A stretch of DNA of 35,369 nucleotides from Patescibacteria group bacterium (GTDB taxonomy: Bacteria > Patescibacteriota > Minisyncoccia > UBA6257 > JACRHW01). Below the pieces are notes generated by a model. The model did not search any database and had not been told where the DNA came from. It saw only the letters and a list, made by a program, of their open reading frames with translations. The DNA is taken from contig JAGWUQ010000009.1 in assembly GCA_028868355.1 (NCBI GenBank), forward strand, positions 1 to 35,369. The letters are read 5' to 3'. Each line of letters starts with the position of its first letter. Position 1 is the first letter of the stretch. Shown here one piece after another: positions 431 through 4,355 of the stretch. The translations under genes and the position numbers were made by a program.

Positions 431-1108
431 TTATCGAAATAACTCCCGCTCAGACATTAACATATAACCATCATAATATGTCTTAATTAGCGAAATAGGA
501 TCACCATTATCTATGATTTTACGGATTTGTGCCATTCTAGTCTTCATTCTGTCTCGGACACCACTATTAACGATTCTAGACTTCATCATATAACGTCGAA
601 GAGTCATAGTCGGAACAAAAGTGTCTAAGTTCCACATTAACATAACCAATACACGATATAAATATTCAACAAATAAATGCACACGGCCATCAAGCCAAAC
701 AATCTGTCTGTCTAGATCAATTGTTATATGTGGAGAAGATAAAATCAAATTCTGTCCAGAAGTTATGCGTTCAAGTGTACGAATAGTAACTTGCAATATT
801 TCAGAAAAGTCTGCCGAACGTAAAACACAATCATCAACACCGTTCAACAGTTTATTATTCAGAACGTCTTTAATCTGTTCACCAACAGTTAACAAGACAA
901 TAGGAACTTTAATACCTCTATTTTTAAGTTCTAGAGCAAATTTATAAAAATCACGGTCTAACAAGACAATATCAATATCATCTTCCAAAGCTGCAATAAT
1001 AGAAGATTGTCTCATCTGTGTTAAAACACACGTATGTCCAAGTGTTGTGAAATTTACCAATAAATTTTGGTATAATTGTGTGTCATTAGTTACCAATAAT
1101 ATTTTCAT
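431..1108 (-). CDS. OmpR/PhoB-family response regulator (receiver plus winged-helix trans_reg_C), orphan copy 1
   Basis: N-terminus MKILLV.ND, LLD acceptor region, LLT, then a winged helix ending GYML in place of GYRL. The ATGA overlap with the upstream gene indicates translational coupling. The conserved receiver Lys looks replaced, so this may be a pseudo-receiver. Confidence 0.7.
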   Translation of the reverse strand: MKILLVTNDTQLYQNLLVNFTTLGHTCVLTQMRQSSIIAALEDDIDIVLLDRDFYKFALELKNRGIKVPIVLLTVGEQIKDVLNNKLLNGVDDCVLRSADFSEILQVTIRTLERITSGQNLILSSPHITIDLDRQIVWLDGRVHLFVEYLYRVLVMLMWNLDTFVPTMTLRRYMMKSRIVNSGVRDRMKTRMAQIRKIIDNGDPISLIKTYYDGYMLMSERELFR

Positions 1109-1863
1109 GGTTTACACGCAAAACTCAAAACTGGTCCCATTTTCTCAATATTATCTAAGCCAGTTTCAATAGGAACGAAATCGATACGTGAACCAAATAT
1201 GCCAGACACTTGTCCAGAAATTTCCGTCGAAATGCCACTATCTTCAGAAGTTATATTTGTATGCGGGTAAAACTTAAATAAGTCTACTAATGAAATACTA
1301 CGACTTAATGGTCCTAACCAAGGTCGTTGTTTAATATTACCATTAAGAGTTATTTTAGCTTTGAAAGGTATTTCAAATTCCGCCGGAACAACAAAAACCT
1401 TTGCTACTACTTTTGTGTGCGGTGGAACTTTAGTCTCAAACGTTTGTGTTATTGTTTGTGATTCAGTTTTCGTTGTCGTATCATAAGTTTCAAGGGATAT
1501 TGAAGGTGTTTGTATAAATGAAAATACACCCAATTGGGGCAATTGTATAGGTAACGCTAAATCTCCAAGATTTGCGGTTAATGATTGTATCAACGTAAAA
1601 GAAATAGATGACTCAAATCTACCTTCAGAAGTCCGCGTCATTGATTGTTCAAGACTTGTGTTGTTGTGATAAGTCTGAATATCAAACTTTTGCGGAAGCC
1701 CATCAACTTCTTTATAATTGTTGTAATCATATGAAGCGGCTGACAACTTAACATCAAACGTCTTGCTATCTATATAAGGACAGAAATTCCATAACTTAAT
1801 TAAGCGTTTACGAATCTCTTCAATGAGATCCAACGTTGTATATTCAATGCTTGGCACGTTCAT
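1105..1863 (-). CDS. Thr/Ser-rich beta-strand protein, paralog of 3621..4322, possibly an aerolysin/ETX-MTX2-like beta-pore-forming fold
   Basis: Clear homology to the 3621..4322 product (shared xTxLDLxxExxxRL and DSxxFxV N-terminal motifs and a T.T.TQTF.T central segment). Stretches of alternating hydrophobic and S/T residues (SISLETYDTTTKTESQTITQTFETKV) are typical of amphipathic beta-hairpins. The fold assignment is an inference. Confidence 0.35.
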   Translation of the reverse strand: MNVPSIEYTTLDLIEEIRKRLIKLWNFCPYIDSKTFDVKLSAASYDYNNYKEVDGLPQKFDIQTYHNNTSLEQSMTRTSEGRFESSISFTLIQSLTANLGDLALPIQLPQLGVFSFIQTPSISLETYDTTTKTESQTITQTFETKVPPHTKVVAKVFVVPAEFEIPFKAKITLNGNIKQRPWLGPLSRSISLVDLFKFYPHTNITSEDSGISTEISGQVSGIFGSRIDFVPIETGLDNIEKMGPVLSFACKP

Positions 1864-2032
1864 ATAACACTTCAGTCTTCAAATCAGTGATTATTCTTTC
1901 ATCTAACATTGCTTGATACATTGCACCTTTATGGTGTCCAACAGCATAGCCAATAATAAAAACACCACTTAATACACAGAAAACAACTATTAATAAAATT
2001 ATCGAAAATGCAGTTGCTTGATTGTCATTCAT
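1844..2032 (-). CDS. Small single-pass membrane protein, probable start at MNDNQ (the ORF extends to 2098)
   Basis: Hydrophobic segment AFSIILLIVVFCVLSGVFIIGYAV. The 20-bp motif copy at 2041-2060 lies immediately upstream of the 2032 start. Confidence 0.45.
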   Translation of the reverse strand: MNDNQATAFSIILLIVVFCVLSGVFIIGYAVGHHKGAMYQAMLDERIITDLKTEVLYERAKH

Positions 2033-2040
2033 AACGTTCT

Positions 2041-2060
2041 CTACATATATTAGGACAAAA
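2041..2060 (-). promoter_or_regulatory. 20-bp motif CTACATATATTAGGACAAAA (minus-strand reading TTTTGTCCTAATATATGTAG), copy 1 of 3
   Basis: Identical sequence at 2171-2190 and 4336-4355, always just upstream of cassette gene starts. It contains a TAATAT -10-like hexamer on the coding strand. Confidence 0.45.
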
Positions 2061-2170
2061 TAACAAGTAAGAAAATGTTTGTAGAATGGTCTACCCACAC
2101 ACTATCCCATTTTTATTGTGTTTGTGAGAGTGATTACTCATGGATGAAACTACAAACATTATTCACTTAT

Positions 2171-2930: not shown

Positions 2931-3618
2931 TAGGATTTTCCCATTCCATAATTAATTCATCGTCCAAATAATAACCAACCTCCTCTACTTTGTGTATATA
3001 AAGGACTTCCCGTCCAACACTAATAATTATATTTATTCGTTCAATTAACCTATCTATACTATTATAGGACATTTTTTCAGCATTATAAAATCGACCGCAA
3101 TTTTGTAACTTTTCGTATGTTACAACAGTACCAGAATATTGTAACAATGTTTTGAATATTTGGAATTCTCGTTTATTTAATTCAACTGTTGAACCAAAGC
3201 GTAAAAGGTCACGGTCAATACGTTCTAGTTCGAAATCACCAACACAAATGTAACTTTTATATTTGTTATTCTTCGCAGGTTCAACTTGAGCCAAAACTAA
3301 TTTATCATCTTCAAATTTTCTAAAACAAGCATCAACACCACTGGACAAAAGTCTAACGCGTGTTTCTGAATCCAGTGTTGCCAAAACAATTATTATCGGC
3401 AATTCTTCGTTATGATTACGAAATGCTCTGGCGACTGTCTCACCAGAGCATTCCTTTAAATCATTATCTAGTAACAACAAATCAATTTGACCTGTTTTCG
3501 CAACTTCAAAAGCTTTTAGCCCATCAGAAACGAAATCACAAGCATAGCCTACGGCAGTAAATTCCATGTGGATATTACGTCGCCAAGCTAAATCGTTGGT
3601 TGCTACTAGAATACGCAT
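2911..3618 (-). CDS. OmpR/PhoB-family response regulator, orphan copy 2
   Basis: MRILVATND, LLLLDNDL, IIIVLAT, RKF. C-terminal winged helix with LNKREFQIFKTLL ... SIDRLIERI ... VGYYL, close to the trans_reg_C consensus. TAATCATG coupling to the upstream gene. Confidence 0.75.
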   Translation of the reverse strand: MRILVATNDLAWRRNIHMEFTAVGYACDFVSDGLKAFEVAKTGQIDLLLLDNDLKECSGETVARAFRNHNEELPIIIVLATLDSETRVRLLSSGVDACFRKFEDDKLVLAQVEPAKNNKYKSYICVGDFELERIDRDLLRFGSTVELNKREFQIFKTLLQYSGTVVTYEKLQNCGRFYNAEKMSYNSIDRLIERINIIISVGREVLYIHKVEEVGYYLDDELIMEWENPNEQILR

Positions 3619-3620
3619 GA

Positions 3621-4322
3621 TTAATTAACACTCAATTCTGAACGCGTACCAACCACGCCAACAATATTTCCGGCCACTTGTAGCTGAACTGTCTCAGCAT
3701 CAAGCACATGTACTTGTGGGCTTGGCTTATGTATGAACAAAGTACCAATACCAACAGTAGAAATACAAATGCCAGTGTTTAAAATACCATGATTACTAAA
3801 CACCGCTTCGATACGTACCAAAGCATTAAAGGGGATGGTTGTCTGTACTGGTGTCACTTTCAGTGTAACAATTTCCTTTTTGCCTGCGGCGACAGGAATG
3901 TCCAACGATTCAGTGAATGTCTGCTCGCGTGTCACACTATTTTGTGTCTCTGTAGCTTGAGTGTTATTGGCCGTAAGTCCAAAGTTTACATTGCCAATGA
4001 TTGGAAATGTAATTGGTAATGTTTGTGTAAAGTTACCTTCAACTGTGTGCGTCATAGTTCTCGACGCGACAGCATCAAAAGTTCCACTCTTCAAGACATG
4101 TTCAGTAATCTCAGCAGTTCCAGTTGTGTTGTCAACGATCGCCTCGTCAAGTGTTTCGGGTGGCAAATCCACTGAGACAGGTGTCCCGTAAATAGGAGAG
4201 CCAAACTGAACTTTAAATTTCGTAGAATCAACCTTAACACTACTGAAACCCGATTGTGCTGTCAAACGCAACTGAGTCTCAGCGACCAAATCAAATGATG
4301 TGAAATCAATTGAATCTGACAT
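3621..4322 (-). CDS. Thr/Ser-rich beta-strand protein, paralog of 1105..1863 (aerolysin/ETX-MTX2-like fold suspected)
   Basis: Homology to the 1105..1863 product. TQATETQNSVTREQTFTESLDIPV and IVTLKVTPVQTTIPFNALV segments. AAGGGAA RBS, with 20-bp motif copy 3 immediately upstream. Confidence 0.35.
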   Translation of the reverse strand: MSDSIDFTSFDLVAETQLRLTAQSGFSSVKVDSTKFKVQFGSPIYGTPVSVDLPPETLDEAIVDNTTGTAEITEHVLKSGTFDAVASRTMTHTVEGNFTQTLPITFPIIGNVNFGLTANNTQATETQNSVTREQTFTESLDIPVAAGKKEIVTLKVTPVQTTIPFNALVRIEAVFSNHGILNTGICISTVGIGTLFIHKPSPQVHVLDAETVQLQVAGNIVGVVGTRSELSVN

Positions 4323-4335
4323 GTTTAATTCCCTT

Positions 4336-4355
4336 CTACATATATTAGGACAAAA
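4336..4355 (-). promoter_or_regulatory. 20-bp motif, copy 3
   Basis: Exact repeat, immediately upstream of the RBS and ATG of 3621..4322. Confidence 0.45.

Follow-up and report, generated by a model that had tools for sequence, protein, structure and literature searches.

Aerolysin-like proteins and pseudo-receiver regulators in a duplicated gene cassette of a probable novel phage

The DNA considered here is an entire NCBI contig of 35,369 bp (JAGWUQ010000009.1; hereafter the window), filed under a 'Patescibacteria group bacterium' metagenome-assembled genome (MAG) and probably of phage origin. Its DNA-metabolism genes form a long array read in one direction, and the 3' end of this array is occupied by a block of about 4 kb that comprises two operons; in each of these a gene for a protein with a predicted aerolysin-type fold (beta1 and beta2) is directly followed by one for a response regulator (RR1 and RR2). 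The first operon encodes beta1, RR1 and a predicted papain-like cysteine protease of 241 amino acids (aa); the second encodes TM62, a single-pass membrane protein, followed by beta2 and RR2. This is a new architecture built from parts of known families and seen in a single lineage, and the NCBI annotation already names beta1 and RR1 correctly. Tentatively, and with rather less than even confidence, we read the cassette as a late lysis-type module that would permeabilise the host membrane from inside, under regulators that would act independently of a kinase.

The case for the aerolysin-type fold comes from sequence profiles and from structure prediction. Beta1 passes the cutoff of the Pfam Aerolysin family (PF01117: 33.0 bits against a cutoff of 24.3, E 4.9e-8); beta2 reaches 16.9 bits with the same model, below the cutoff, its matches to Aerolysin and ETX_MTX2 being weak. 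A joint profile of beta1 and beta2 matches Cry23Aa1 (E 1.7e-5) and natterin-like proteins in the PDB. The AlphaFold2 (AF2) model of beta1, computed from an alignment of 27 homologues and both phage paralogues, is of good quality (pLDDT 87.8, pTM 0.79) and is matched by Foldseek with a probability of 1.00 to 4rhz, 7ml9, 4pkm, 2ztb (TM-score 0.62), 1uyj and 5jzh; its top 30 fold matches in the PDB are all aerolysin-family toxins, including Cry23Aa1, Mpp75, Cry51, parasporin-2 (TM-score 0.62), epsilon toxin and aerolysin. A preliminary description of this DNA, made from the sequence without database searches, had called the beta proteins aerolysin-like and had compared their alternating stretches to membrane-inserting hairpins. 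Pfam (for beta1), structure prediction and Foldseek agree with the first point, and an alternating hydrophobic/polar hairpin with Ser/Thr flanks can indeed be read in both beta1 (GNVNFGLTANNTQATETQNSVT) and beta2 (GVFSFIQTPSISLETYDTTTKTESQT). Residues 100-130, the sole low-confidence stretch of the beta1 model, coincide with this Ser/Thr-flanked hairpin, and Ser and Thr together make up 22% of beta1 and 20% of beta2. Beta-rich, Ser/Thr-rich sequences would also suit virion structural proteins of the tail or decoration type, an explanation that we consider highly improbable: the top 30 PDB matches are all toxins, the best match among predicted viral structures has a TM-score of 0.35, and Pfam and PHROG scans found no phage structural genes in the window. 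Because this test for a virion protein came out negative, the pore-former assignment stands: the predicted fold of the beta proteins is of the aerolysin/ETX-MTX2 pore-former type, with pore formation itself deduced from the fold.

No signal peptide is present in beta1, beta2 or any of the 27 homologues, whose N-termini are hydrophilic and acidic and have no hydrophobic leader. At the C-terminus, 8 residues follow the last core strand in beta1 and 28 in beta2; in nearly all homologues the same position is occupied by 17-38 residues or by a whole extra domain. Aerolysin and epsilon toxin oligomerise only once such a peptide has been removed from their C-terminus. A natural variant of the sequence (99.15% identity) differs by nine changes, all within beta1, and because eight are synonymous and the ninth (V112I) is conservative, the gene is, on this comparison of sequences, under purifying selection. 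The family is rare: when 1.84 billion representative proteins were searched exhaustively with HMMER, only 67 relatives emerged at E <= 1e-3, all of them metagenomic singletons, and a word-indexed search with beta1 matched only beta1 itself. Some cellular mini-aerolysins (P0012, P0018) are fused to DnaJ-like CxxCxGxG zinc-finger repeats, and others (P0017, P0019, P0020) share a C-terminal domain of ~115-140 aa; such modular variants may point to the regulation of the family.

The regulators that follow the beta genes have kept the architecture of their family and lost much of its chemistry. RR1 matches Pfam models for the receiver (PF00072: 49.1 bits, cutoff 30.2, E 7e-13) and the winged helix (PF00486: 29.1 bits, cutoff 26.2, E 1e-6), and aligns end to end with OmpR/PhoB regulators; its nearest database relatives are generic regulators ~30% identical to it and were set aside as a clue to the host. 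RR2 is recognised by phrog_731 (E 6e-9 over residues 1-212; hhalign 89% over residues 1-183) and by PmrA/PhoP-type NCBIfam models (~E 1e-9), and weakly matches the GlnR_1st pseudo-receiver family of Pfam; its winged helix is degenerate, falls below Pfam detection and is visible by profile methods only. Both proteins belong by sequence to the OmpR/PhoB family, as the preliminary description had proposed, its claim of a receiver joined to a winged helix holding by Pfam for RR1 and by profile methods only for the winged helix of RR2. Two further claims, that the receivers are bona fide and that the regulators are controlled by phosphorylation, find no support in an alignment of RR1, RR2 and close homologues with E. 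coli PhoB and OmpR, with which a HMMER alignment to 3q9s agrees. The phospho-acceptor Asp is retained in both, and the Mg2+-binding acidic pair (DD) has become Thr-Asn in both; RR1 has also exchanged the conserved Thr for Leu, with the Lys kept, and RR2 has exchanged the conserved Lys for Arg, with the Thr kept, and carries a 5-residue loop deletion after the Asp. Judged by these residues, RR1 and RR2 are pseudo-receivers as defined for atypical response regulators (PMC12632262). Control by phosphorylation is accordingly unlikely, and a missing kinase is what one would expect; Pfam and PHROG scans of the sizeable open reading frames (ORFs) of the 35-kb contig found no HisKA or HATPase_c domain in any of them, in agreement with the earlier reading that the window holds no histidine kinase, although a kinase of the host might serve. 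Pseudo-receivers of the OmpR family usually serve as constitutive dimeric transcription factors, and what pseudo-receiver domains do is, according to the same recent review, largely unknown (PMC12632262). A freshwater 'phage' record with two response-regulator matches, MW462191, proved to be bacterial DNA with ccm and htrA genes.

Re-reading the sequence gave the seven ORFs with the coordinates and overlaps of the preliminary description, all on the minus strand. The genes within each operon are tightly packed: two nucleotides separate the beta1 stop from the RR1 start (TAATCATG), beta2 and RR2 are joined by an ATGA overlap of 4 nt, the RR1 gene shares 20 nt with that of the 241-aa protein, and the TM62 gene shares 17 nt with that of beta2. 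Because the internal genes overlap or abut and have no Shine-Dalgarno sequences, each operon probably yields its proteins jointly. The two units are paralogous, as had been claimed, and their duplication is old: beta1 and beta2 are 25% identical (BLASTP E 4e-15), and RR1 and RR2 are 30% identical in the receiver only (E 2e-9). The pair was copied as a unit, and both copies are intact, with gene order and overlaps kept. Compared with the remaining sequence of the window, the cassette has a higher AT content and a lower GC content at third codon positions (GC3), and it is followed by two hairpin terminators, which bears out its earlier description as an accessory-type block at the end of a transcription unit.

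Each operon is preceded by a 20-bp element, CTACATATATTAGGACAAAA, which on the minus strand reads TTTTGTCCTAATATATGTAG. It occurs in exactly three copies (2041, 2171 and 4336), also when three mismatches are allowed, with none expected in shuffled sequences; the pattern GTCCTARTATAN{0,3}TGTA has four matches against none expected. A fourth copy, on the same strand at 5693..5710, carries a 3-nt insertion, and the claim that the element occurs three times and nowhere else thus holds for exact copies and not for this degenerate one. The element always stands in gene orientation, with an ATG 13 nt (P1), 11 nt (P2) or 8 nt (P3) after it, and contains TAATAT, a -10-like hexamer; no -35 sequence is common to the regions upstream of its copies, and a canonical sigma-70 promoter was rejected, none being listed there by a promoter scan. 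The copies are 100% identical over 20-21 bp even though the flanking genes have diverged to ~25% aa identity, and sequence-specific recognition is therefore indicated. By its placement and composition the element is most likely a phage promoter, possibly with operator function; candidate readers are the phage sigma factor, either RR, or an enzyme whose gene lies beyond the window. The exact element has no match in IMG/VR or in JGI metagenome contigs, and among GTDB genomes it is found solely in a 1,059-bp contig of the same phage. No significant RNA structure was detected between P2 and P3 (fold z -0.88), and a small RNA at this place was discarded. A second class of motif, GTCCCTAGACTTAACGTCC, lies on the minus strand at 6356-6469, 7504-7534, 8222-8257 and 9340-9378, and also at ~4990-5030. 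Copies closely precede the starts of at least four other genes and in places form tandem repeats with a period of 15 bp. The motif has TTTGTCC(C)TA in common with the 20-bp element and probably represents a further class of promoter or operator in this phage. The sigma factor encoded at 31692..32327 has regions 2 and 4 only, resembling the extracytoplasmic function (ECF) type, and could read either class.

The 241-aa protein had been noted only as a Cys/His protein; what had gone unrecognised is the papain-like protease to which AF2 and Foldseek point. Its model (pLDDT 88.5, pTM 0.88) is papain-like, with a pro-region-like N-terminus and Foldseek matches to xylellain (3ois, E 1.6e-6), procathepsins K, H and L, and papain, and across 30 homologues GDC63T is invariant and H178 is at least 90% conserved. 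It has no Pfam match (Peptidase_C1 included) and no sequence match in the PDB, and its assignment as a papain-like (clan CA, C1-like) cysteine protease is, on the predicted structure, a similarity at the level of the fold. The protein belongs to a separate family with >100 cellular homologues at ~45% identity and with 149 relatives in the viral contigs of IMG/VR. In the GenBank phage MW202816 the homologous gene overlaps that of an Amidase_2 endolysin at the end of the tail-gene operon. Pfam scans of 66 distinct upstream and 65 downstream neighbours of IMG/VR homologues yielded phage lysozyme (3), Holin_LLH, GH19, GH25, CHAP (2), Hydrolase_2 and Tlde1, and in three loci the large terminase gene lies directly downstream; many phages have their large terminase gene in this position after the lysis cassette. 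This linkage of the family to lysis genes, read from gene neighbourhoods, is suggestive. An aerolysin-like or RR gene was found near the protease homologue in none of 80 viral loci, and a general linkage of these genes was rejected. In one IMG/VR group (L043-L057 and related loci; 12 loci), a gene for a DUF1003 membrane protein invariably stands before that of the protease homologue. TM62, which reaches a Kyte-Doolittle maximum of 3.14 over 19 residues and whose gene is predicted with the same length of 62 aa in an independent assembly, has no match in Pfam, PHROG, PADLOC or any holin family, and is a holin-like candidate.

The pairing of these genes matches no described system, as the preliminary description had suspected: PADLOC returned no match for any of the seven proteins at E up to 0.1, by which known defence systems, gasdermin-protease systems included, were rejected, and literature searches were likewise negative. 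None of the databases or papers searched contained a phage with genes of the aerolysin type, a duplicated coupling of such genes to regulators of the pseudo-receiver kind, or their occurrence together with a papain-like protease and a small membrane protein. Neither tblastn of beta1 and beta2 against INPHARED nor a pattern scan of IMG/VR with the beta alignment yielded a phage homologue of the pore-formers; IMG/VR pattern scans made with RR1 and with the 241-aa protein alone were likewise empty. Genomic contexts were retrieved for seven cellular homologues of the pore-formers, one of them too short to judge, and in the other six tblastn found no adjacent OmpR-type regulator, papain-like protease or TM62 homologue. 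What had been called a fixed coupling is thus confined to this phage. The neighbours of the homologues are an NB-ARC/WD40 protein, an nSTAND-type ATPase, an MvaI/BcnI restriction enzyme, an HTH_3/M78 pair with a RES toxin, and an integrase; the cellular pore-former homologues sit in mobile or conflict-type neighbourhoods. An intracellular killing role fits because of this company of STAND NTPases, restriction enzyme, RES toxin and integrase.

In the lysis-type module that we tentatively prefer, the shared 20-bp promoter element would fire both operons simultaneously, and the pore-formers would accumulate in the cytoplasm and attack the host cytoplasmic membrane from inside, in a lysis-type, killing or exclusion function. 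The protease would be a candidate activator that removes the C-terminal tail of beta2, or could itself be a lysis enzyme, and TM62 would be a candidate for a holin-like helper. The pseudo-receiver regulators, free of a kinase, would set the timing or dose of a dangerous protein as transcription regulators of the cassette; alternatively, they might be direct binding partners of the pore-former. A stricter version, in which the RR-derived protein gates the intracellular pore-former by binding it and/or by autoregulation at the 20-bp promoter, with the protease as trigger, appears to us distinctly unlikely.

Several points weigh against a lysis-type module. Aerolysin-type pores are narrow: they could depolarise the membrane but would offer no passage to a folded enzyme of 27 kDa. 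Classical holin-endolysin logic does not fit in a simple way because the pores are narrow and because the protease has no signal-anchor-release (SAR) or signal sequence. The cassette is placed after early-type DNA-metabolism genes, not structural genes, and the aerolysin-family toxins known to us act from outside and on eukaryotic cells. The DNA-binding domains of RR1 and RR2 are no longer recognisably similar, and because they have diverged beyond recognition it is doubtful that both regulators bind the 20-bp element. Cellular homologues of the protease are stand-alone genes in ordinary chromosomal surroundings (two contexts, three contigs), and the link between protease and lysis genes amounts to ~9 of 66 loci, from lineages that are not independent, against a chance level that we roughly estimate at ~5%. 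Finally, the pairing is known from one phage lineage.

It is worth weighing how the same genes might be explained otherwise. The pore-formers could be the cargo of a toxin 'moron', directed against protist grazers or competing cells and freed by phage lysis, with regulators that control expression only. Shiga toxin is produced by the infected cell and set free when the phage lyses it, a route that requires no signal peptide; the structural neighbours of the beta proteins (Cry23, Mpp75, Cry51, parasporin-2, epsilon toxin) are all outside-acting toxins on eukaryotic cells; and promoter-like elements of their own, terminators, a position at the end of the array and AT-richness are all typical of morons. 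We nevertheless regard cargo toxins as unlikely, given that the cellular homologues are signal-less too and lie near STAND NTPases, restriction enzymes and RES toxins, not near secretion genes, that no receptor-binding lectin-type domain is added to what is, at 233 aa, the minimal fold, and that the tight, duplicated coupling to regulator, protease and membrane protein would be left unexplained. 

That coupling has a different meaning if the pair resembles a toxin-antitoxin or exclusion system, in which the regulator would bind and neutralise the pore-former and repress the operon at the 20-bp element. Once the regulator was lost, or cut (possibly by the protease), the pore-former would be released, with superinfection exclusion, abortive killing or a lysis clock as the outcome. 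Toxin first and DNA-binder second, with a 4-nt overlap or a 2-nt gap, is an order that would favour fixed stoichiometry; the pair was duplicated as a unit with both halves kept, a receiver without catalysis is free for another binding role, and a protease gene is attached. An interaction between beta protein and regulator is, however, hypothetical, homologues of the pore-former occur elsewhere without such a partner, PADLOC recognises nothing here, and the usual part of OmpR-family pseudo-receivers is that of plain constitutive dimeric transcription factors (PMC12632262), all of which leaves this arrangement with a low probability in our estimation. A similarly slim chance attaches to the view that the neighbours are unlinked in function, the regulators reprogramming host or phage genes, the pore-formers having nothing to do with them and the adjacency being an accident copied by one duplication. 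Phage OmpR-type regulators do have a PHROG family of their own (phrog_731), and none of the other contexts examined contains the pairing; yet both copies have retained order and overlap after divergence to ~25% identity, and the internal genes have no ribosome-binding sites of their own, which argues for selection on co-expression.

Table 1. Features of the cassette and its flanks (positions in the window).
Feature	Position	Strand	Remarks
Motif P1	4336..4355	-	begins 4 nt past the stop of the 204-aa gene, ends 13 nt before the beta1 ATG
beta1, 233 aa	3621..4322	-	Pfam Aerolysin; AF2/Foldseek
RR1, 235 aa	2911..3618	-	Response_reg + Trans_reg_C
Papain-like cysteine protease (predicted), 241 aa	2205..2930	-	AF2 + Foldseek
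Motif P2	2171..2190	-	followed after 11 nt by the mini-ORF
Mini-ORF, 22 codons (MFVVSSMSNHSHKHNKNGIVCG)	2091..2159	-	between P2 and P3; sequence reading only
Motif P3	2041..2060	-	ends 8 nt before the TM62 ATG
TM62, 62 aa	1847..2032	-	one hydrophobic helix; likeliest start ATG 2032
beta2, 252 aa	1105..1863	-	beta1 paralogue
RR2, 225 aa	431..1108	-	diverged OmpR-type, by profile methods
Hairpin, 15-bp perfect stem + T run	238..281	-	intrinsic terminator candidate, 3' of RR2
Hairpin, 20-bp stem, T runs on both strands	157..199	.	bidirectional terminator candidate
Motif copy 4, degenerate core (GTCCTAGTATATTATGTA)	5693..5710	-	within 850 bp of non-coding DNA upstream of the cassette

The flanks of the cassette are themselves rich in repeats. 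Directly upstream, at 4359-4973, lies the gene of a 204-aa protein with a GHGRSGKDE P-loop, which has a weak PHROG match and no Pfam match and which we take to resemble phage deoxynucleoside monophosphate (dNMP) kinases. The non-coding region beyond it (850 bp, 4974-5822) contains five tandem arrays (22 bp x3, 15 bp x3.5, 7 bp x5.4 and, twice, 9 bp x5, the 9-bp array recurring at 5283-5328 and 5776-5821), and looks iteron-like; it could be a replication origin or a landing pad for a regulator. After the fourth motif copy, on the minus strand, follows a GC-rich stretch of ~170 nt (5522-5692) with an 11-bp repeat (GCCGCAGGCTC, 2.8 copies) and, at its end, a hairpin with a T run; it could be a non-coding transcript, and a structured RNA was rejected here (z -1.08, no Rfam match). 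At the other end of the cassette the contig closes with a perfect 8-bp tandem array at 1-140 (GTCCTAAC, 17.5 copies), within which an independent 5-kb assembly also stops, and which may be a genome terminus or a mere assembly breakpoint; it shares GTCCTAA with the 20-bp element, in opposite orientation.

The genes of the window lie nearly all on the minus strand and form, according to the Pfam and PHROG scans, mostly a typical phage DNA-metabolism set: a Dda-like helicase, ThyX, an ATP-dependent ligase, an HNH endonuclease, a nucleotidyltransferase, a dCMP deaminase and a dUTPase, alongside a two-domain sigma factor. No tRNA and no Rfam family was found in the window. Megablast of positions 1-6000 against INPHARED gave no match, and no close relative of the contig was found in INPHARED and IMG/VR by megablast, tblastn and pattern scans. 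Because it carries phage-type genes and has no such relative in either database, we read the contig as part of a novel phage whose assignment to the MAG is probably a case of mis-binning. The same phage is present in two further datasets, as a 5,009-bp Logan contig (99.98% identical) and as the 1,059-bp MAG contig (99.15%); exact look-ups of the ligase and of a protein resembling major vault protein (MVP), made with the aim of extending the contig, returned no record. That MVP-like protein (822 aa, 13540-16008) has the shoulder and repeat domains of MVP (E 1e-15) and adjoins a 502-aa phrog_1735 protein (12016-13524) that is ~40% identical to proteins of many unrelated phages; together with a VWA-domain protein encoded at 8273-9328, they make up a trio unusual for a phage. 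A further ORF (16719-17423, matching phrog_7964/phrog_5070) contains an 18-bp unit repeated ~19 times at 16948-17296 and encodes a hexapeptide-repeat protein. A CAP (cysteine-rich secretory protein) domain protein (21042-21455) and a GNAT acetyltransferase (10725-11165) are encoded amid the DNA-metabolism genes, and a 61-nt sequence occurs three times at gene 3' ends or junctions (7732-7792, 11593-11653 and 17771-17831, the latter two with 87% and 62% identity to the first).

Aerolysin-type toxins are familiar as secreted weapons against eukaryotes, and here two signal-less copies are carried by a phage. Should they prove to pierce the membrane of bacteria from within, holins and bacterial gasdermins would have a beta-barrel counterpart in them, common to phages and their hosts. 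Were the pore-former gated by a regulator, which we hold to be distinctly unlikely, this would amount to a new phage way to time lysis or to exclude rivals by means of a beta-barrel pore-former, replacing or adding to the helical holin, and would assign a first role to the signal-less mini-aerolysins of bacterial conflict islands. The coupling to pseudo-receiver regulators is, in any event, a compact and testable case of pseudo-receiver function, and the 20-bp element and the second motif class offer a start for mapping the promoters of an uncultured, sigma-encoding phage.

Set beside known systems, the cassette recalls several of them in part. With the ETX/MTX2-aerolysin toxins, the beta proteins share an elongated three-domain beta fold in prediction, a Ser/Thr-flanked amphipathic hairpin and, in beta2 and the cellular homologues, a C-terminal tail; unlike those toxins they have no signal peptide or crystal-protein context, are minimal in size (233-252 aa), are phage-encoded and translationally coupled to a regulator, and in the case of beta1 have no C-terminal tail. 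The regulators resemble the atypical OmpR/PhoB members GlnR and ChxR (PMC12632262) in joining a receiver to a winged helix, in having lost catalytic residues with the Asp kept, and in being without a kinase, but they are only ~30% identical to any known regulator, phage-encoded, duplicated, and positioned downstream of a pore-former gene to which they are coupled. The 241-aa protein has, in its model, the papain fold, pro-region-like N-terminus and conserved Cys/His pair of xylellain and other clan CA family C1 peptidases, from which it is set apart as a separate family without a Pfam Peptidase_C1 match or a PDB sequence match.

At the level of the whole cassette, the likeness is one of logic and layout. 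Bacterial gasdermin and protease systems likewise place a signal-less pore-former with an inhibitory C-terminal peptide beside a protease, and kill from inside; here the fold is that of aerolysin, the protease is papain-like, not caspase-like, the setting is a phage and not a defence island, and cleavage is putative. Type II toxin-antitoxin operons are also bicistronic, with an overlapping pair of toxin and DNA-binder and possible autoregulation at an upstream operator, whereas the toxin here would be a pore-former and its putative partner a response-regulator-like protein of 225-235 aa. Holin-endolysin and pinholin cassettes have in common with this one their small overlapping genes, a single-pass membrane protein and a dedicated promoter (here a probable one), and relatives of the protease gene lie beside lysozyme and holin genes in a number of other phages; they differ from it in that the present cassette contains neither a recognised muralytic enzyme nor a member of a recognised holin family, that the candidates for membrane damage are soluble beta-barrel pore-formers, and that two transcription regulators are embedded among the genes.

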